Source: Escherichia coli | Lineage (GTDB): Bacteria; Pseudomonadota; Gammaproteobacteria; Enterobacterales; Enterobacteriaceae | Assembly: GCF_051903065.1 (NCBI RefSeq) | Contig: NZ_CP178438.1 | Reading direction: 5' to 3' (one strand) | DNA length: 64,000 nucleotides | Part shown: piece after piece, positions 3,387-15,681 of the stretch | Layout of the letters: every line of letters begins with the position of its first letter | Numbering within the stretch: position 1 is the stretch's first letter | Notes under the pieces: generated by a model | What the model was told of the DNA's origin: nothing | The model's input: the letters and a program-made list of their open reading frames with translations, nothing else | Database searches by the model: none | Made by a program: the position numbers and the translations under genes

Positions 3387-4172
3387 TTAGCGCACTAAAT
3401 AACCGCCATCAACCACTAATAAATGCCCGTTGACATAATTCGATGCCGGACTTGCGAGGAATACGGCTGCGCCCATTAAATCCTGAGTATCGCCCCAACG
3501 GTTTGCTGGAATATGATCAAGAACGCGCTGATTGGTTTCTGGATTACTGCGTGTCGCCAGCGTAATATCTGTTGCATAATAGCCAGGGGCGATACCATTT
3601 ACCTGAATATTATATTGACCTAGTTCATCACAATAAGCTTTGGTGAACCCGGCAAGAGCATGTTTAGTGGCAGAATATGCAGGTGACCATTGTCCACCTA
3701 AGTAAGAGAACAATGAACAGATATTAATGATTTTACCGCTTTTCTGCGGGATCATAATTTTTGCTGCTTCGTAGCTTAACTCAAATGCGGCGGTCAGGTT
3801 CACATCAATCATTGGATCCCAGTCGGCACGACCGAAGTCCAGCACCTTATTCAGCTTACAAATACCGGCATTGTTAACCAGAATATCGACGGTACCGAAA
3901 CGTTCGCAACAGGCGGCGATTATCTTCTGCGGCGCGCCTTCTGCGGTGATATCCACCTGCATGAAGTCCACCTCAACACCCTGTTTTTCAATCATTTCCT
4001 TTGTTTCGCCGTTATCTTTGACAAAACTTGGAATAAAGACATTTGCGCCTGCTTTGGCCAACGCCATGGCAAATGCCTGGCCTAAACCGCTATTCCCGCC
4101 GGTAACAATTGCGGTTTTACCTTTCAGGGAGAAAAAATCCATTGAGAACGCATTGAGAGATTCGATTGACAT
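3387..4172 (-). CDS. ygcW: Short-chain dehydrogenase/reductase (SDR) family oxidoreductase
   Basis: TGGNSGLG Rossmann motif and YxxxK catalytic motif (YSATK); start placed at MSIESLNAF (4172) instead of the longer ORF-track start. Confidence 0.85.
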   Translation of the reverse strand: MSIESLNAFSMDFFSLKGKTAIVTGGNSGLGQAFAMALAKAGANVFIPSFVKDNGETKEMIEKQGVEVDFMQVDITAEGAPQKIIAACCERFGTVDILVNNAGICKLNKVLDFGRADWDPMIDVNLTAAFELSYEAAKIMIPQKSGKIINICSLFSYLGGQWSPAYSATKHALAGFTKAYCDELGQYNIQVNGIAPGYYATDITLATRSNPETNQRVLDHIPANRWGDTQDLMGAAVFLASPASNYVNGHLLVVDGGYLVR

Positions 4173-4419
4173 AGTTAGCTCCAATTTCCGTAAGGCAAAA
4201 AAAAAGAAAGGTAACTTCCCCCGCAAGAGGGAAGTTACCTTTCTCATTATCTCTGGTAACTGGAGATAATTTTTAGCATAAGGGCATAACTGCTAATGTG
4301 ATCGTAATCACAGTGTAATATTCGTATTGTCAAATAATTTTAAAAAGCAGAAGCGTGATTACTCTCACACAACACCTCTGCTTTCCATGTTATTTATTAT
4401 TTCAATTACTAGAGACCTG

Positions 4420-5794: not shown

Positions 5795-7273
5795 ATGTCG
5801 AAGAAATACATCATAGGGATTGATGGCGGAAGTCAGAGCACAAAAGTGGTGATGTACGATCTGGAAGGTAACGTGGTTTGCGAAGGCAAAGGTTTATTGC
5901 AGCCGATGCACACGCCAGATGCCGATACCGCAGAACATCCTGACGACGATTTATGGGCATCATTATGTTTTGCCGGTCACGATTTGATGAGTCAGTTTGC
6001 CGGGAATAAAGAAGATATTGTCGGTATTGGTCTGGGATCCATCCGTTGCTGCCGTGCGTTATTGAAAGCCGATGGCACGCCAGCTGCGCCATTGATTAGC
6101 TGGCAGGATGCACGCGTAACGCGTCCCTACGAACACACTAATCCTGACGTGGCATATGTCACCTCTTTTTCGGGTTATCTAACGCATCGCTTAACCGGCG
6201 AGTTTAAAGACAATATCGCCAACTATTTTGGTCAGTGGCCAGTGGATTATAAGAGCTGGGCATGGAGCGAAGATGCTGCGGTAATGGAGAAGTTTAATAT
6301 CCCTCGTCATATGCTGTTTGATGTGCAAATGCCTGGCACCGTCCTCGGACATATCACACCACAAGCCGCACTGGCGACACATTTCCCGGCAGGGCTGCCG
6401 GTTGTTTGTACCACCAGTGATAAACCGGTAGAAGCTCTGGGAGCCGGATTACTGGATGATGAAACGGCGGTGATTTCTCTTGGCACCTACATCGCGCTGA
6501 TGATGAACGGTAAAGCACTGCCGAAAGATCCGGTGGCGTACTGGCCGATTATGTCTTCTATACCGGAAACATTGCTGTATGAAGGGTACGGTATCCGTAA
6601 AGGCATGTGGACGGTGAGCTGGCTACGCGACATGTTAGGCGAGTCGTTAATTCAGGATGCCAAAGCACAGGATCTTTCACCGGAAGATTTGCTCAACAAA
6701 AAAGCTTCTTGTGTGCCGCCTGGCTGTAATGGTCTGATGACGGTGCTGGACTGGCTGACCAACCCGTGGGAACCCTACAAACGTGGGATTATGATCGGCT
6801 TTGATTCCAGCATGGATTACACATGGATATATCGTTCGATACTGGAAAGCGTGGCGCTGACGCTGAAGAACAATTACGACAATATGTGTAATGAAATGAA
6901 TCACTTTGCAAAGCATGTGATCATTACTGGCGGCGGTTCGAACAGCGATCTATTTATGCAAATTTTTGCCGACGTGTTCAACCTTCCGGCACGCCGTAAC
7001 GCCATTAACGGTTGTGCAAGTCTGGGGGCAGCGATCAATACGGCGGTAGGTCTGGGGCTATACCCGGATTACGCAACGGCTGTCGACAAAATGGTTCGCG
7101 TGAAAGATATCTTTATGCCTGTTGAGAGCAATGCCAAACGCTACGACGCGATGAATAAAGGTATTTTCAAAGCCCTAACCAAACATACTGATGTGATCCT
7201 GAAAAAATCGTATGAAGTGATGCATGGGGAATTGGGGAATGCGGATTCGATCCAGAGCTGGTCGAATGCGTAA
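5795..7273 (+). CDS. ygcE: FGGY-family carbohydrate kinase
   Basis: 492 aa; N-terminal IGIDGGSQSTK actin-fold ATPase motif; RBS aggag upstream. Confidence 0.85.
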   Translation: MSKKYIIGIDGGSQSTKVVMYDLEGNVVCEGKGLLQPMHTPDADTAEHPDDDLWASLCFAGHDLMSQFAGNKEDIVGIGLGSIRCCRALLKADGTPAAPLISWQDARVTRPYEHTNPDVAYVTSFSGYLTHRLTGEFKDNIANYFGQWPVDYKSWAWSEDAAVMEKFNIPRHMLFDVQMPGTVLGHITPQAALATHFPAGLPVVCTTSDKPVEALGAGLLDDETAVISLGTYIALMMNGKALPKDPVAYWPIMSSIPETLLYEGYGIRKGMWTVSWLRDMLGESLIQDAKAQDLSPEDLLNKKASCVPPGCNGLMTVLDWLTNPWEPYKRGIMIGFDSSMDYTWIYRSILESVALTLKNNYDNMCNEMNHFAKHVIITGGGSNSDLFMQIFADVFNLPARRNAINGCASLGAAINTAVGLGLYPDYATAVDKMVRVKDIFMPVESNAKRYDAMNKGIFKALTKHTDVILKKSYEVMHGELGNADSIQSWSNA

Positions 7274-7519: not shown

Positions 7520-8576
7520 GGCTTTGTTGAATAAATCGAACTTTTGCTGAGTTGAAGGATCAGATCACGTATCTTCCCGACAACGCAGACCGTTCCGTGG
7601 CAAAGCAAAAGTTCAAAATCACCAACTGGCCCACCTACAATAAAGCCCTCATCAACCGTGGCTCCATAACTTTCTGGCTGGATGATGAAGCTATTCAGGC
7701 CTGGTATGAGTCAGCAACACCTTCTTCACGAGGCAGACCTCAGCGCTATTCTGACCTTGCCATCACGACTGTGCTGGTCATTAAACGCGTATTCAGGCTG
7801 ACCCTGCGCGCTGCGCAGGGCTTTATTGATTCCATTTTTTCTCTGATGAACGTTCCGCTACGCTGCCCGGATTACAGCTGTGTCAGCAGGCGGGCAAAGT
7901 CGGTTAATGTCAGTTTCAAAACGCCCACCCGGGGTGAAATCGCACACCTGGTAATTGATTCCACCGGGCTGAAGGTCTTCGGTGAAGGCGAGTGGAAAGT
8001 CAAAAAGCATGGCCAGGAACGCCGCCGTATCTGGCGTAAGCTGCATCTCGCCGTTGACAGTAAAACACATGAAATCATCTGCGCTGACCTGTCGCTGAAC
8101 AACGTTACGGACTCAGAGGCCTTCCCCGGGTTAATCCGGCAAACCCACCGGAAAATCAGGTCAGCCGCCGCCGATGGCGCTTACGATACCCGGCTATGTC
8201 ACGATGAACTGCGGCGTAAGAAAATCAGCGCGCTTATCCCTCCCCGAAAAGGTGCGGGTTACTGGCCCGGTGAATATGCAGACCGTAACCGTGCAGTGGC
8301 TAATCAGCGAATGACCGGGAGTAATGCGCGGTGGAAATGGACAACAGATTACAACCGTCGCTCGATAGCGGAAACGGCGATGTACCGGGTAAAACAGCTG
8401 TTCGGGGGTTCACTGACACTGCGTGACTACGATGGTCAGGTTGCAGAGGCTATGGCCCTGGTACGAGCGCTGAACAAAATGACGAAAGCAGGTATGCCTG
8501 AAAGCGTGCGTATTGCCTGAAAACACAACCCGCTACGGGGGAGACTTACCCGAAATCTGATTTATTCAACAAAGCC
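7520..8576 (+). mobile_element. IS903-family (IS5 superfamily) insertion sequence, 1057 bp
   Basis: Perfect 18-bp terminal inverted repeats (ggctttgttgaataaatc at 7520; reverse complement ending at 8576); flanked by a 9-bp direct repeat attttcact at 7511-7519 and 8577-8585 (target-site duplication). Confidence 0.92.
7597..8520 (+). CDS. IS903-type DDE transposase
   Basis: Protein ...AKQKFKITNWPTYNKALINRGSITFWLDDEAIQAWYESATPSSRGRPQRYSDLAITTVLVIKR... matches the IS903/IS102 transposase as I recall it; probable GTG start at 7597 (the ORF-track start at 7552 is a TTG extension). Confidence 0.88.
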   Translation: MAKQKFKITNWPTYNKALINRGSITFWLDDEAIQAWYESATPSSRGRPQRYSDLAITTVLVIKRVFRLTLRAAQGFIDSIFSLMNVPLRCPDYSCVSRRAKSVNVSFKTPTRGEIAHLVIDSTGLKVFGEGEWKVKKHGQERRRIWRKLHLAVDSKTHEIICADLSLNNVTDSEAFPGLIRQTHRKIRSAAADGAYDTRLCHDELRRKKISALIPPRKGAGYWPGEYADRNRAVANQRMTGSNARWKWTTDYNRRSIAETAMYRVKQLFGGSLTLRDYDGQVAEAMALVRALNKMTKAGMPESVRIA

Positions 8577-8976: not shown

Positions 8977-9554
8977 TGGTTTATCCCCGCTGGCGCGGGG
9001 AACTCGTACTGACGGATAAAAATAATACCTTTTGCGGCGGTTTATCCCCGCTGGCGCGGGGAACTCGTCAACGTTTTTCATGTGGGCATGAGTTGGGGCG
9101 GTTTATCCCCGCTGGCGCGGGGAACTCTATTCGGCCTCGTGCTGGTCGTGACAAAATACCGGTTTATCCCCGCTAGCGCGGGGAACTCTGGCGATATTGC
9201 CTACCGCAACAAAGAAAATACGGTTTATCCCCGCTAGCGCGGGGAACTCATCCACGAATCCAGTGCAAATGAGTTTGTTGGCGGTTTATCCCCGCTAGCG
9301 CGGGGAACTCATTGTGACTACCACCGATAACCCCGCAACCACCGGTTTATCCCCGCTAGCGCGGGGAACTCCTGCATTCGCCTGCGGTTATCAGATCGCT
9401 AAACGGTTTATCCCCGCTAGCGCGGGGAACTCGCTGCCATTACTTCCCGCCAGCGTTGCTCTGGCGGTTTATCCCCGCTAGCGCGGGGAACTCGCAGAGA
9501 ATCGTTCGATTGCCCCTACATCTTCCGGTTTATCCCCGCTGGCGCGGGGAACTC
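8977..9554 (-). CRISPR. CRISPR array, type I-E (E. coli-type) repeats, 10 repeats / 9 spacers
   Basis: 29-bp repeat cggtttatccccgctggcgcggggaactc (reverse complement of GAGTTCCCCGCGCCAGCGGGGATAAACCG) with an exact 61-bp period; nine 32-bp spacers at 9006, 9067, 9128, 9189, 9250, 9311, 9372, 9433, 9494; the first repeat has t instead of c at its first base. Confidence 0.97.
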
Positions 9555-9892: not shown

Positions 9893-10564
9893 TCAGGCAA
9901 TATTTAGATATTTATGTGTTTGCATCGACAAACGCCAATTACGCGCAATGCAGATTTCAATGCACAATCGTGTGGCATCATCCTTTTGGCTAATCGGCTG
10001 CAGTGCAATGACTCGCGGTTTATCATCGGTCAGCGTTGCCAATAGTTCATCCAGTGCTTCAATATCGCGTACGCGCCCCACTGGATGCTTGATTTCGTTG
10101 GCTCGCTCCAGTGCCTGTGACAACACTTCATAGCCGCCGCGCATGTTCAGCTTTGGCGATACGGTAACCCAGGTATTCGGTGTGCAGCGTACCTCATGAG
10201 TACCACTGGTTTCGATCTGGCAGCTAAAACCGTTCTTTTCGAGCAGATCAGTCAGTGGTAGCAAATCATGAATGCAAGGCTCACCACCCGTAATCACCAC
10301 ATGCCGCGCGGTGTATCCCTGGCGACTAATGACAGCCAACAAGTCTTCACTGCTCGCCGCCCCCCACTTATCACTCTCTTTGGTCTTCGCCAGAATGCTG
10401 AAAAGGGAGACTTCCCGATCCTCAAGCTTTTCCCAGGTGTGTTTGGTGTCGCACCAGGCACAGCCAACCGGGCATCCCTGTAAACGAATAAAAATGGCGG
10501 GGACGCCGGTAAAGTAACCCTCACCTTGCAGGGTCTGGAACATCTCGTTAATCGGGTACTGCAT
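9893..10564 (-). CDS. queE: 7-carboxy-7-deazaguanine synthase (radical SAM)
   Basis: 223 aa, MQYPINEMFQTLQGEGYFTGVPAIFIRLQGCPVGCAWCDTKHTW with the CxxxCxxC radical-SAM cluster motif. Confidence 0.9.
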   Translation of the reverse strand: MQYPINEMFQTLQGEGYFTGVPAIFIRLQGCPVGCAWCDTKHTWEKLEDREVSLFSILAKTKESDKWGAASSEDLLAVISRQGYTARHVVITGGEPCIHDLLPLTDLLEKNGFSCQIETSGTHEVRCTPNTWVTVSPKLNMRGGYEVLSQALERANEIKHPVGRVRDIEALDELLATLTDDKPRVIALQPISQKDDATRLCIEICIARNWRLSMQTHKYLNIA

Positions 10565-10736
10565 AGCATTCTCTGTGAAGTGGATAATTGTTAATTATTG
10601 CAGATCCTGCCACAACAATCATGTCTTATTAACATTCTGTTACAGGCAGGCTTATGGCAAAAAGTGGATTAGATCATAAAGAATAAAATGAAGCAGTGTA
10701 TTATGTTTTAAGGAATTAATTAAAAGGGATTTAAAC

Positions 10737-11339
10737 ATGCTCAGAATATGCATCGTAATTATATTTATTTTCAATTTATCAGGCTGTGGATATAACGATA
10801 TTCAAACCTATGATGAGCAGGTTAACGCCTCCTGGTCTGAGGTATTAAATCAATATCAACGTCGCGCCGATCTTATTCCTAATCTTGTCGCCAGTATTAA
10901 AGGTTATTCCAACCATGAAAAAGACGTTTTGGAAGCCGTAACATTGGCTCGTAGCCAGGCTAATCGCGCCAGCAGCGATCTTCAGCAAGCTCCCGGAGAT
11001 GCACAAAAATTACAAGCCTGGCAACAGGCCCAGGCGCAGGTGACTCGCACTCTCGGTCAGTTAACGATAATTAGTGAGCGTTACCCTGAGTTAAAGGCTC
11101 AAGAGCTCTATCAAAACTTAATGGTACAGCTCGAAGGAAGTGAAAATAGAATTGCCGTTGCGCGAGGAAGATATATTAAAGCCATTGAACAATATAATGT
11201 CACTATCCGCAAATTCCCCGCTGTATTAACCGCAAAGGTCATGGATTACACACCAAAGAAAAATTATTTGCCGGATGATGTCACCGCAGTAAGTAAAGCC
11301 CCAACAATAGATTTTAGCCAGAATGCTAATGCTCATTAA
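10737..11339 (+). CDS. LemA-family lipoprotein
   Basis: 200 aa; N-terminal lipobox (LSGC); LemA-type core (...QRRADLIPNLVASIKGYSNHEKDVLEAVTLAR...); RBS aaaaggga upstream; AT-rich codon usage. Confidence 0.85.
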   Translation: MLRICIVIIFIFNLSGCGYNDIQTYDEQVNASWSEVLNQYQRRADLIPNLVASIKGYSNHEKDVLEAVTLARSQANRASSDLQQAPGDAQKLQAWQQAQAQVTRTLGQLTIISERYPELKAQELYQNLMVQLEGSENRIAVARGRYIKAIEQYNVTIRKFPAVLTAKVMDYTPKKNYLPDDVTAVSKAPTIDFSQNANAH

Positions 11340-11352
11340 GCGGGGAACTTCT

Positions 11353-12246
11353 ATGCGAAATTTTATCTTCCTTATGGCTTTCTTCTGTTCATCTGTGTTT
11401 GCCACACAAATTCCAGTACCTGAATCCCCCAAGTATGTGAATGACTTAACCGGCACATTAACAAACAGCGAAGTAAACACCCTGACCAACCAGATTAAAG
11501 CCCTGACGCAAAAAAACCACGCACAGTTGGTCGTGTTAGTGGTTGATACAACAGGCGATGAAACCATCGAGCAGTACGCAACGCGGGTATTCGATAGCTG
11601 GAAACCGGGTGATAAAGACCGCGATGATGGCGTTCTACTGTTAGTCGCCTGGCAGGATCATACCGTGCGTATTGAAATCGGTTACGGGCTGGAAGGTATT
11701 ATTACGGATGCACAGTCCGGGAAAATTATTCGCAACAGTATTATTCCTGCATTTAAAAAAGGCGACCTGGCTGGCGGTTTACAAAAGGGGATCAGCGATA
11801 TTGAAAGTCGTCTTACGGGGAATAATTTAGCAACGATAACACCGACCGATCACCCTTTGCCCTTTAGCGGTTGGTGGGCATTGTTAGTCTGGGCGATAGT
11901 ACTGACATTTATTTCTGCCAGAGGATATATCAAAACGCTGGGAGTAATTTGCTTCGCAGCTATTGTACTGGCCTTTGTTTTACCTATAGCAGGCTTCAGC
12001 GGAAGCTGGGGAGTACTCGCAACATTACTCTGCTTCGCCACACCGTTCCTGGCTGTCGCCATCGCTTTTACCCCCTTCGGCAAAAAAGTTCGGGATTTGA
12101 TGCGTGATGTCAACCAGCCATCACGCCATACAAGAAGCAATTCTTCCTCCCACTATTCATCATCGTCATCCTCTTCATTCAACAATGACAATTTCAGCGG
12201 TGGTGGCGGTTCATCTGGTGGCGGTGGCGCTTCCGGGCGCTGGTAA
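11353..12246 (+). CDS. TPM-domain (YgcG-like) membrane protein, paralog 1
   Basis: Signal peptide MRNFIFLMAFFCSSVFA, TPM/phosphatase-like domain (...VLVVDTTGDETIEQYATRVFDSWKPGDKDRDDGVLLLVAW...), C-terminal TM helices, Gly/Ser-rich tail ending SGRW. Confidence 0.85.
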   Translation: MRNFIFLMAFFCSSVFATQIPVPESPKYVNDLTGTLTNSEVNTLTNQIKALTQKNHAQLVVLVVDTTGDETIEQYATRVFDSWKPGDKDRDDGVLLLVAWQDHTVRIEIGYGLEGIITDAQSGKIIRNSIIPAFKKGDLAGGLQKGISDIESRLTGNNLATITPTDHPLPFSGWWALLVWAIVLTFISARGYIKTLGVICFAAIVLAFVLPIAGFSGSWGVLATLLCFATPFLAVAIAFTPFGKKVRDLMRDVNQPSRHTRSNSSSHYSSSSSSSFNNDNFSGGGGSSGGGGASGRW

Positions 12247-12260
12247 CAAAAGGAATTGAT

Positions 12261-13409
12261 ATGCGTATTTTTCTCTTACTTCTGATGCTATGCAGTTTTC
12301 AGGTATTCGCTGAACGATTGCCTTCAGTGAATGACTTAACCGGGACATTAACGACAGAAGAACAAAGTGTTTTAAATCAACAATTAAAGACTCTCGAGCA
12401 GCAAAACCACTTCCAGGTGGCCGTGTTAGTTACGCCAACCACAGGGGGCAAAAACATTAAACTTGCAGCCTCGCAGAGCTACGGGTTATATCACTGGAAA
12501 CCCATTGGAGAGAAGCGATACGGCGAAGGTATCTTAATTCTCGTCGTTTGGCCGGAAGGGCTGGCGTCAATGAAGATTGGACATGGACTGGAAGAGATGT
12601 TGCCGCCGGAACAAGCTGCGCAAATTGTTCGTTACCATATGCAGCCAGAATTCGAAAAAAACAATCTCTTTGCTGGATTAACGGGCGGAATTGAAAGCAT
12701 CGCACAGTTTACCCATATCAAAGCGAACCTTAGCCCTTTGGATGCTTTAGCCAATCATCTGTTTGCTAATCCGCAACGTTCGCTGCCATGTCTTGCCTGG
12801 ACACTGCTGATGATCGTTGCCATCGTTGTCCTCTGGCGATTTGCCAGCCGCCCACGGCGTGGCATATGGATGATATCGATGATTACCCCTATGGTCTGGT
12901 TTTTCTCCTTTCAGGACGATGTCATCATTCGGCGGGTATCGGTCGTTTGTTTTAGTTTATTGTTAGCAACAACCTGCAAGCAGCGTCTCGCGGTAGTTTT
13001 TAATATGTGCCGCGTATTTCCTATGATGCTGACCCCAAAAAATAAAAACTCTAAAGTGAAAAAACAAAAGAAGACTCCGCAGGTTCGTGAATCAGGACGA
13101 AATTCATTGTTTGTCGTGATGCTAATAATTATTGTGGGATGGTGCCTGGTGTTCGCCAGTAATAAAAATATTGCATTCATCTCAACAATTATTGGGTTAA
13201 TTGATCATTTTATCGGCCCAATAACCATTGCTGGCATCGTTCTGCTGATCATTGTGGCCAAATTTACTGGCAATCTTAAGCTGGGGTCAGGAGAAAAAAG
13301 CAACAGGAAAACGGGGAATCGTAATGCTCACTCTCGCTCTTCGTCGAGAAATTCTTTCCGCGGTGGTGGCGGTTCTTCAGGAGGCGGCGGTTCATCCGGC
13401 CGTTGGTGA
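12261..13409 (+). CDS. TPM-domain (YgcG-like) membrane protein, divergent paralog 2 with extended membrane region
   Basis: Signal peptide MRIFLLLLMLCSFQVFA, TPM domain, extra hydrophobic and Lys-rich segments, tail ...GGGGSSGGGGSSGRW. Confidence 0.8.
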   Translation: MRIFLLLLMLCSFQVFAERLPSVNDLTGTLTTEEQSVLNQQLKTLEQQNHFQVAVLVTPTTGGKNIKLAASQSYGLYHWKPIGEKRYGEGILILVVWPEGLASMKIGHGLEEMLPPEQAAQIVRYHMQPEFEKNNLFAGLTGGIESIAQFTHIKANLSPLDALANHLFANPQRSLPCLAWTLLMIVAIVVLWRFASRPRRGIWMISMITPMVWFFSFQDDVIIRRVSVVCFSLLLATTCKQRLAVVFNMCRVFPMMLTPKNKNSKVKKQKKTPQVRESGRNSLFVVMLIIIVGWCLVFASNKNIAFISTIIGLIDHFIGPITIAGIVLLIIVAKFTGNLKLGSGEKSNRKTGNRNAHSRSSSRNSFRGGGGSSGGGGSSGRW

Positions 13410-13414
13410 TCGTA

Positions 13415-14308
13415 ATGCGCTTAATCTTTATTCTATTCACTTTGTGGTGCCTTCCTGGGCTTGCCCAGCAAATTGCTGTGCCGGAACTGCGCCAACAGGT
13501 GACCGATATTACTGGTACGTTAAGCACTTCTGAACAACAATCACTGACACAGCAACTGCAGGATATTACACATAAAACACGGGCGCAGGTCGCTGTATTA
13601 GTAGTGCCGTCCACCGGAGACGATTCCATTGAACAATATGCAACACGCGTTTTTGATAGCTGGAAACTGGGAGATAAGCAGAGAAACGATGGTATTTTAC
13701 TTCTGGTTGCCTGGGAGGATCATGCTGTTCGTATTGAGGTTGGCTACGGGCTGGAAGGGATGGTTACCGACCTGCAAGCGGCGAAAATTATCAGGGATAT
13801 ATTGATCCCTGCCTTCAAAAGTGATGACCTGATGGGTGGATTAACACTGGCAAGCGAAAATATCGGCGCGCTTCTGTTGAATGGTGAATTATCGGAAGAC
13901 AAGGGGGATTATTACAGTATCAATCCCCCTATTCCATTATCGCTTGCTGTAATTATATTGCTGGCGGTACTTTCATATTTTATTGTTTTTACCGATCCGT
14001 CGAATTTACCCTGGATCACTCTCACTGGCGCCATTTACGGGATGGTATTCCTCTATGTTGCCGAGCCAGGACCATGGACCAATTTAATCGTTGCCTGCGG
14101 TATGTTAACACCTTTTGCGATCGTGACGCTGGTTATTTTTTGGCTTATCGTTAATAAAAAGCTACGCGCCAAATACAAAAAACTCAGTAAAGAAAGAGCT
14201 TCAAGAAAAGGTTCTTCTTCATCCTCTTCCGGTGGAGGCTCAAGTGGCGGCGGATTTAGCGGCGGGGGCGGTTCTTCTGGCGGTGGCGGCGCGTCCGGTC
14301 GCTGGTAA
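13415..14308 (+). CDS. TPM-domain (YgcG-like) membrane protein, paralog 3 (likely the counterpart of K-12 ygcG)
   Basis: Signal peptide, TPM domain closely similar to paralog 1 (...SIEQYATRVFDSWKLGDKQRNDGILLLVAWEDHAVRIEVGYGLEG...), tail ...GGGGSSGGGGASGRW; start could also be 13403, overlapping the upstream stop. Confidence 0.85.
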   Translation: MRLIFILFTLWCLPGLAQQIAVPELRQQVTDITGTLSTSEQQSLTQQLQDITHKTRAQVAVLVVPSTGDDSIEQYATRVFDSWKLGDKQRNDGILLLVAWEDHAVRIEVGYGLEGMVTDLQAAKIIRDILIPAFKSDDLMGGLTLASENIGALLLNGELSEDKGDYYSINPPIPLSLAVIILLAVLSYFIVFTDPSNLPWITLTGAIYGMVFLYVAEPGPWTNLIVACGMLTPFAIVTLVIFWLIVNKKLRAKYKKLSKERASRKGSSSSSSGGGSSGGGFSGGGGSSGGGGASGRW

Positions 14309-14321
14309 CTCAACCATAAAA

Positions 14322-14350
14322 AACGCCAGCCCGGAGGCTGGCATTTTTAA
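14322..14350. terminator. Bidirectional intrinsic terminator between the TPM cluster and eno
   Basis: Hairpin gccagcc-cggag-ggctggc flanked by an A-run upstream and a T-run downstream, between convergent genes. Confidence 0.6.

Positions 14351-14367: not shown

Positions 14368-15681
<1,314 letters not shown>

Follow-up and report, generated by a model that had tools for sequence, protein, structure and literature searches.

Gene organization of the queE–eno interval

We analyzed a 64,000-nt stretch of the Escherichia coli contig NZ_CP178438.1 (hereafter the window), in which positions 10737–14308 carry a block made up of lemA and three genes for TPM-domain membrane proteins, designated here T1, T2 and T3. 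According to the open reading frame (ORF) list of the window, these are four co-directional ORFs located between queE (9893–10564, minus strand) and eno (14368–15666, minus strand), the latter being convergent with the TPM operon. The lemA gene (10737–11339, plus strand) encodes a LemA-family lipoprotein of 200 aa that is predicted to face the periplasm, and it is followed on the same strand by T1 (11353–12246, 297 aa, with an alternative ATG at 11323), T2 (12261–13409, 382 aa) and T3 (13406/13415–14308, 297–300 aa). The spacers are 13 nt between lemA and T1 and 14 nt between T1 and T2. The GTG start of T3 at 13406, which is also the start given by RefSeq in a strain identical to the window over the block, overlaps the T2 stop by 4 nt, and the alternative ATG at 13415 leaves a gap of 5 nt. 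The co-directional and tightly spaced or overlapping arrangement reported in a preliminary description of this DNA was confirmed at the same coordinates.

The divergent intergenic region between queE and lemA (10565–10736, 31.4% GC) presumably holds the promoters of both genes. A consensus scan of this spacer found no consensus sigma-70-like promoter, and in K-12 this region is bound by PhoP upstream of queE (PMC4974570). Between the stop codons of T3 and eno, a GC-rich hairpin at 14325–14342 (GCCAGCC-CGGA-GGCTGGC) has an A-run on one side, with AAAAAAC upstream, and a T-run on the other, where TTTTTAAAT follows; it looks like a bidirectional terminator common to the TPM operon and the convergent eno. 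The GC content of the block is 46.0% against 50.7% for the window, and that of lemA is 42.3% (37.8% at third codon positions), so the earlier observation that the region, and lemA especially, is richer in AT than its surroundings describes a real but modest difference.

Domain architecture of LemA and the TPM proteins

LemA matched the Pfam family PF04011 over the entire model (positions 1–149 of 149; E = 1.4e-48, 165 bits), and its residues 23–177 matched the Thermotoga maritima structure annotated as ‘lemA protein’ (PDB 2etd_A; E = 4.3e-32). In the strain identical over the block, RefSeq labels the gene product ‘LemA family protein’. The N-terminus, MLRICIVIIFIFNLSGC, includes the lipobox L-S-G-C17, of which G16 and C17 were invariant in 13 gamma- and betaproteobacterial LemA orthologs (from Escherichia, Klebsiella, Brenneria, Photorhabdus, Pseudomonas, Bordetella and Burkholderia), with a glycine at position +2. 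Under the sorting rule for E. coli lipoproteins, glycine at +2 predicts a location in the outer membrane, with the protein facing the periplasm. The NCBIfam model for the magnetosome LemA-like protein MamQ (NF040966) scored 87.8 bits against a cut-off of 250, by which the LemA of this locus belongs to a related family but is not MamQ.

T1, T2 and T3, together with the K-12 protein YgcG, all matched the Pfam TPM family (PF04536) at E ≤ 0.001, the best E-value being 3.8e-41 for T1, and both the LemA and the TPM assignments of the preliminary description thus passed the hidden Markov model (HMM) thresholds. Solved TPM relatives were 5anp (BA41), 7tbr and 2kw7, with E-values of 1e-24 to 1e-31. Based on hydropathy and charge, each of T1–T3 begins with a cleavable signal peptide, followed by an acidic TPM domain of ~150 aa, by membrane helices and by a tail that is basic and rich in Ser and Gly; this agrees with the plan of signal peptide, TPM domain, C-terminal transmembrane helices and Gly/Ser tail proposed before. 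Three membrane helices were predicted by hydropathy in each of T1, T3 and YgcG, and about five in T2, which also has a Lys-rich loop. The AlphaFold2 model of T2 placed five helices after the domain (residues 171–194, 200–216, 221–256, 280–299 and 302–337), gave the TPM domain an alpha/beta fold with a predicted local distance difference test (pLDDT) score of ~80–88, and left residues 257–279 (the Lys-rich loop) and 338–382 (the tail) disordered; overall, this model was of low confidence (mean pLDDT 57.5, predicted template modeling score 0.38), and only its TPM domain and number of helices were used. The odd number of helices (three or five) and the positive charge of the tails suggest that the tails would be cytoplasmic.

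The last 17 residues, F[SR]GGGGSSGGGG[AS]SGRW, were identical among the TPM proteins of Escherichia, Klebsiella, Brenneria and Pseudomonas, whose membrane regions are unrelated. In the window, the GGGGSSGGGG[AS]SGRW endings are encoded on the plus strand at 12199–12243 in T1, 13362–13406 in T2 and 14261–14305 in T3. The NCBIfam model for Psb32 (NF047379), a TPM protein associated with photosystem II, returned 34.3 and 31.5 bits against a cut-off of 160, and T2 gave no match. Because the scores of 31–34 bits were so far below this cut-off, T1–T3 and Psb32 were not considered orthologs.

Old TPM paralog classes in Escherichia

An alignment of 23 TPM proteins from this and the corresponding loci described below resolved four classes, namely T1, T2, T3 and T4, the last of which is represented by K-12 YgcG. 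Between classes, the TPM domains were 31–61% identical and the membrane regions 9–24%, while the membrane regions within a class were 77–98% identical across species, mostly 90–98% (E. coli, E. albertii and E. whittamii). From this conservation of 90–98% across species within classes, the duplications are old and predate the genus. T1 and T3, which the preliminary description had called close copies, are indeed the most similar pair, but they share only 47% identity overall (TPM domain 61%, membrane region 23%), and the term does not apply. Full-length homologs of T2 were found only in Escherichia, and its other matches covered at most ~58% of the query, usually the part with the TPM domain.

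YgcG was 31–56% identical to T1–T3 in the TPM domain and 9–15% in the membrane region, and by sequence it can be assigned to a fourth class that is orthologous to none of the three. Mosaic alleles also occur: in strain CRECJHTL34, which has another four-gene form of the locus, the last gene joins the 5′ end of T3 (177 nt) to a T4 body with 95% identity to K-12 ygcG. We considered whether K-12 ygcG could be a simple T1::T3 recombinant and rejected this, as its nucleotides 178–873 matched the last gene of CRECJHTL34 at 95% and the window T3 at only ~64–69%. No close match to its first 177 nt was obtained by blastn or local alignments. Because the body matches the CRECJHTL34 gene rather than the window T3 and the 5′ end is unmatched, ygcG was treated as a separate class with mosaic alleles. 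The pan-locus of Escherichia therefore contains at least four old TPM classes that share the periplasmic TPM domain and the invariant C-terminal peptide, F-S-GGGGSSGGGG-[AS]-SGRW, each with its own conserved membrane-helix module, and gene content at the locus shifts through deletion and inter-paralog recombination.

Distribution of the locus among E. coli genomes

We then counted the forms of the locus by megablast in 5,426 complete E. coli genomes, requiring at least 80% of each query to be covered and using a BL21(DE3) derivative as the reference sequence of the K-12 form. The whole four-gene interval was present in 1,102 genomes, as was T2; lemA was present in 1,451 and the T3-specific 3′ half in 782. 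The K-12 form, consisting of yqcG and ygcG, was found in 3,924 genomes. Approximately 20% of the genomes thus carry lemA with three TPM genes, including O157:H7 strains and UTI89, ~6% carry lemA with one TPM gene and a small membrane protein, and ~72% carry the K-12 form. TG1 and other K-12 strains matched the BL21(DE3)-derived reference at 100% identity, and both K-12 strains and the BL21(DE3) derivative have only yqcG and ygcG, in agreement with the earlier statement that K-12 has a single ygcG at this position. The four-gene arrangement is accordingly not core to the species, and the K-12 form is the commoner. The claim that ~2.7 kb at this site is variable among strains was correct as to the variability; the difference is not a simple 2.7-kb extra segment, since the whole block differs, the queE–eno interval measuring 3,803 nt in the window and 1,224 nt in the K-12 form. 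A few E. coli genomes had deletions in the locus mediated by insertion sequences (ISs), and a laboratory O157 derivative had only two TPM genes there.

In a third form of the locus, represented by E. coli PS1Thumoskin9 (locus 6730–7092), T2 and T3 are replaced by a gene for a predicted two-helix membrane protein of 120 aa without a family match. This gene was present in 340 of the 5,426 genomes, and the protein was at least 99% identical in 339 of these 340 carriers.

Conservation of the operon in other species

E. albertii and E. whittamii share the arrangement lemA-T1-T2-T3 between queE and eno. In two Escherichia sp. genomes it is lemA-T1-T3, and one further Escherichia genome adds to lemA-T1-T3 a gene whose membrane module is of the YgcG type. 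A close LemA was present in E. marmotae. Outside the genus, Entomohabitans had lemA and two TPM genes between queE and eno, and Klebsiella had the order queE-lemA-TPM-eno within cysJIH-queD...pyrG-mazG-relA synteny, the TPM gene being assigned by blastp. Because the genes occupy the same site in other Escherichia, Klebsiella and Entomohabitans, the operon is ancestral at the queE–eno site and the K-12 form is derived. The block in the window is an intact, vertically inherited lemA–TPM operon and the fuller version of a locus that has mostly been reduced in E. coli.

AT-richness as a sign of acquisition was rejected, given the same operon at the same site in these genera. Among the 5,426 complete E. 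coli genomes, no plasmid copy of the block or of lemA was detected, all copies being chromosomal. A tblastn search of phage and plasmid collections with LemA returned nothing above 60% identity, apart from a single 4.9-Mb, chromosome-sized E. coli record filed among the plasmids, with a LemA 96.5% identical to that of the window, and a mobile origin was rejected on these grounds. The block was thus neither absent from the site in relatives nor carried on mobile elements, as a genomic island would be. The phage collection did contain LemA-family genes, at 48% identity or less, in 37 records that were mostly Enterococcus and Listeria phages.

Selection and gene integrity

The ratios of nonsynonymous to synonymous substitution rates (dN/dS) were calculated by the Nei–Gojobori method between the window and E. 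albertii. They were 0.028 for LemA, 0.18 for T1 (0.13–0.20 over the comparisons made), 0.25 for T2 (0.25–0.40) and 0.16 for T3 (0.12–0.16 against E. albertii and E. whittamii), compared with 0.008 for queE and ~0 for eno. Among K-12-type strains, dN/dS for ygcG was ~0.3–0.4. All four genes of the block are under purifying selection and functional, with weaker constraint than on the housekeeping genes next to them.

All four ORFs are intact in the window, and that of T1 runs without interruption to the C-terminal motif of the family. Nevertheless, RefSeq flags T1 as a pseudogene, ‘incomplete, missing C-terminus’, in the strain that is identical to the window over the block. In the O157 strain Al Ain, the T1 allele (locus 2289–2963) is interrupted by a nonsense codon in place of Leu225, which falls within the third membrane helix, and is represented in RefSeq by a protein of 224 aa. 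Since the flagged span is exactly 224 codons, the flag probably stems from an alignment with this truncated O157 protein, and the pseudogene label on the intact T1 is probably an artefact, as it would be for intact T1 genes flagged in other strains.

K-12 yqcG as a probable remnant of lemA

K-12 YqcG is a protein of 46 aa annotated as a ‘cell envelope stress response protein’ (4139–4279 in the locus of the BL21(DE3) derivative). The first ~206 nt past queE are 83% identical between the window and the K-12 form in the BL21(DE3) derivative. The yqcG gene aligned to window positions 10703–10812 with 70% identity over 112 nt and a 1-nt indel, in a stretch that starts 34 nt ahead of the lemA ATG and takes in the codons of the signal peptide; the segment KIIFIF of YqcG corresponds to VIIFIF of LemA, and the lipobox cysteine is lost. 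The yqcG gene is frameshifted in some K-12-type strains, and in one of them, AVS0756, the surviving ORF begins at the old lemA ATG (MSKTFTKIIFIF...). In view of the alignment over the leader and signal peptide and of this ORF, YqcG is best interpreted as what is left of this part of lemA. A relationship between the 3′ end of yqcG and that of lemA was rejected, the identity there being 57% with many gaps. In K-12, deletion of yqcG raises queE expression (PMC4974570).

Neighbouring features

Between ygcE (5795–7273) and queE, the window has a CRISPR array at 8977–9554 with 10 copies of the 29-nt repeat CGGTTTATCCCCGCTGGCGCGGGGAACTC, a period of 61 nt and 9 spacers. RefSeq also annotates a CRISPR array at the matching position in the related strains that were fetched. 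An ORF for an IS5-family transposase (7552–8520; NCBIfam NF033579, E = 6e-107) lies between ygcE and the array. In 23CRST027, a strain with an identical lemA–TPM block, the gap between ygcE and the array is ~1.1 kb shorter, apparently without the IS5 insertion.

Genomic association of lemA with TPM and HtpX-like genes

Operons or pairs of lemA and TPM genes occur in Klebsiella, Brenneria, Pseudomonas, Entomohabitans and other Escherichia, and the pair is accordingly conserved. The literature search found no functional study of the LemA–TPM pair, ygcG or yqcG, so that the preliminary description of the pair as widespread and without an established function was sound. In six loci with distant lemA genes (from Bacillota, Bacteroidaceae and archaea), no adjacent TPM gene was detected with a narrow HMM built from four sequences, which may miss distant TPM domains. 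One of the six, a metagenome-assembled genome (MAG) of Bacteroidaceae, has an HtpX-like protease instead of a TPM protein, and the HtpX family is known for membrane-protein quality control. The lemA stop in this MAG overlaps the start of the gene for the HtpX-like M48 protease. The LemA of the same MAG (locus 221–1779) has an uncharged N-terminus and one membrane helix followed by KLRNNRK, which predicts a cytoplasmic domain, across the membrane from where the lipoprotein form of proteobacteria is predicted to lie. A LemA–HtpX-like protease pair is also formed by SPD_1138/1139 of Streptococcus pneumoniae (PMC8546594).

Among the TPM proteins that have been studied, Psb32/TLP18.3 is associated with photosystem II assembly and repair, CcoZ with the Campylobacter cbb3 oxidase (PMC8267372; bioRxiv 10.1101/2025.05.08.652833, 10.1101/2024.10.28.620569), and YdjH with PspA. 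Comparative analyses regard the TPM domain as an unlikely phosphatase and propose a chaperone-like role in assembly (PMC11237479; bioRxiv 10.1101/2025.01.14.632903), and in a cryo-EM study Psb32 was reportedly associated with a photosystem II assembly intermediate (bioRxiv 10.1101/2025.05.08.652833). Because of the LemA–TPM pairing, the LemA–HtpX pairing and these assembly factors, we favoured a module facing the periplasm that would take part in assembly or upkeep of membrane proteins.

Proposed mechanism and alternative explanations

According to the model that we propose, LemA would be exported and receive its lipid at Cys17, its probable destination being the inner face of the outer membrane, and the TPM proteins would reside in the inner membrane with the TPM domain in the periplasm and the basic Ser/Gly tail in the cytoplasm. 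By analogy with Psb32/TLP18.3, CcoZ and YdjH, the TPM domains would probably be non-enzymatic assembly or maintenance factors of membrane protein complexes. The class-specific membrane modules may select different clients, LemA may be the shared periplasmic partner of the TPM proteins, and the invariant C-terminal tail may act as a common cytoplasmic docking peptide. To the explanation as a whole, that is, an ancestral lemA–TPM operon that was reduced in most E. coli and would serve membrane-protein assembly or upkeep, we give a probability of about 0.5.

Several points weigh against this explanation. About 72% of E. coli genomes have none of lemA, T1, T2 and T3, and the locus is therefore dispensable; some genomes also have IS elements at the site (an IS4 where the four-gene block matches, and an IS1 in the K-12-type locus), which points in the same direction. 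The TPM dN/dS of 0.2–0.4 is relaxed relative to the flanking genes, and the T1 allele of strain Al Ain is interrupted by a nonsense codon. The tail topology of the TPM proteins is a prediction, as are the putative lipid anchoring and outer-membrane sorting of LemA. The LemA of Bacteroidaceae is predicted to face the cytoplasm, so that a single mode of LemA–TPM contact across bacteria is not assured. The literature reports no client, partner or phenotype for these E. coli genes, and it is divided on the TPM domain, for which weak phosphatase or ATPase activities in vitro have been reported (as cited in PMC11237479).

In a more specific form of the same explanation, the operon would be a modular envelope-spanning system with a shared LemA and interchangeable TPM proteins, whose class modules pick the clients and whose cytoplasmic GGGGSSGGGGASGRW-COOH recruits a common partner. 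We regard this form as quite unlikely. If it were true, swapping of paralogs from strain to strain would retune envelope upkeep, and K-12, with only T4 and the LemA signal-peptide remnant YqcG, would be a natural near-null, which would explain why no phenotype has emerged in the model strain for so widespread a pair.

The alternatives differ in how well they accommodate the same observations. The TPM proteins could be periplasmic phosphatases or nucleotidases (ecto-ATPase/ADPase) with LemA as an accessory and with paralogs differing in substrate, as the Pfam family name TPM_phosphatase would imply. We consider this unlikely, in that only low activity has been reported for TLP18.3, the membrane modules rather than a catalytic pocket show the strongest class-specific conservation, two comparative analyses favour an assembly role (PMC11237479; bioRxiv 10.1101/2025.01.14.632903) and Psb32 is seen with a photosystem II assembly intermediate (bioRxiv 10.1101/2025.05.08.652833).

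The operon could also be decaying and dispensable cargo, an ancestral set of genes that is being lost in E. coli and has little present role. Its loss or replacement in ~80% of complete E. coli genomes would fit, as would the nonsense codon in T1 of the O157 genome examined, the IS4 and IS1 insertions, the O157 derivative with two TPM genes only, the frameshifts of yqcG in some K-12-type strains and the TPM dN/dS of up to 0.4. However, the four ORFs are intact in the window with dN/dS well below 1 (0.03 for LemA), the membrane modules are 90–98% conserved between species, and E. albertii, E. whittamii, E. marmotae and Klebsiella have kept the operon; all this makes decay a doubtful account.

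An envelope-stress sensor, in which LemA in the outer membrane contacts the TPM proteins in the inner membrane and the tails signal, in the manner of RcsF–IgaA or NlpE–CpxA, is improbable. The predicted geometry would suit it, with a lipoprotein lacking Asp at +2 and multi-pass proteins bearing an invariant cytoplasmic peptide; K-12 YqcG is annotated as a cell-envelope-stress protein, sigma-S binding has been reported at the queE/ygcG intergenic region, and a Flavobacterium sppA mutant that has envelope defects shows induction of lemA and of a TPM gene. On the other hand, no regulator, kinase or other known output domain is linked to the genes, the tail is of low complexity and predicted to be disordered (AlphaFold2, T2), and the LemA proteins of other phyla, predicted to be cytoplasmic and paired with HtpX, fit upkeep better than signalling.

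A defence system was rejected, since a scan of six proteins (LemA, T1–T3, the 120-aa protein and YqcG) against PADLOC-DB 2.0 matched no family at E ≤ 0.01. That the block is an island gained by horizontal transfer, perhaps for defence or conflict, and inserted beside the CRISPR array, is highly improbable: the GC content below that of the flanks, the high polymorphism with very divergent alleles between near-identical flanks (synonymous divergence of ~1.1 in the 3′ part of T3 against 0.02 in eno), the CRISPR array and IS5 nearby and the LemA homologs in some phages are outweighed by the negative PADLOC result, the lack of any mobility gene among the ORFs listed inside the four-gene block, the occurrence of these genes at this very site in Klebsiella, Entomohabitans and other Escherichia, and the searches that found no E. 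coli plasmid copy and no phage or plasmid LemA reaching 60% identity other than in the chromosome-sized E. coli record.

LemA and TPM/YgcG proteins are very widespread, and K-12 has no LemA and only one of the four TPM classes; this may explain the scant genetics of the pair. Tractable strains exist, given that lemA with three TPM genes is found in ~20% of E. coli, O157:H7 and UTI89 among them (with T1 truncated in the O157 allele examined). For annotation, the analysis suggests an origin for YqcG, indicates that the T1 pseudogene flag is probably an artefact and separates ygcG from T1–T3 as a non-ortholog.

Comparison with known systems

The closest solved relative of the TPM proteins is BA41 of Bizionia argentinensis (5anp), a YgcG-type protein from the Bacteroidetes, which matched over the TPM domain in the profile comparison (E = 8.4e-31). 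Its layout is like that of T1–T3, with an N-terminal export signal, a TPM domain, a membrane helix and a Gly-rich tail ending in GGGGASGGW, but it has one membrane helix where T1 and T3 have three and T2 five, with class-specific sequences. BA41 reportedly has ATPase/ADPase activity in vitro. Psb32/TLP18.3 and CcoZ resemble T1–T3 in having an extracytoplasmic TPM domain, lumenal or periplasmic, that is anchored by membrane helices; unlike T1–T3, they are described with neither a LemA partner nor a Gly-rich tail, and E. coli lacks the photosystem in which Psb32/TLP18.3 operates.

Within E. coli, K-12 YgcG occupies the same site as T1–T3, belongs to the same family and, like T1 and T3, has a plan of signal peptide, TPM domain, three helices and tail, with an identical C-terminal 15 residues. 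The K-12 locus differs from the window in having no LemA, a YqcG without the lipobox cysteine, and a YgcG of a fourth class. As for LemA, the T. maritima protein (2etd) and the LemA–HtpX pairs of Firmicutes and Bacteroidetes belong to the same Pfam family as the window protein, and in those pairs, as in the window, lemA adjoins a gene for membrane-protein homeostasis. The window LemA, however, has a lipoprotein signal, a predicted periplasmic location and a TPM partner, whereas the Bacteroidaceae homolog has an N-out/C-in anchor, a predicted cytoplasmic domain and an HtpX partner. In sum, the operon would offer an entry point for genetics while being unsurprising to a specialist: it is a further member of the known LemA–TPM pair, expanded to three old paralogs, and it leaves the current understanding of this pair in place.

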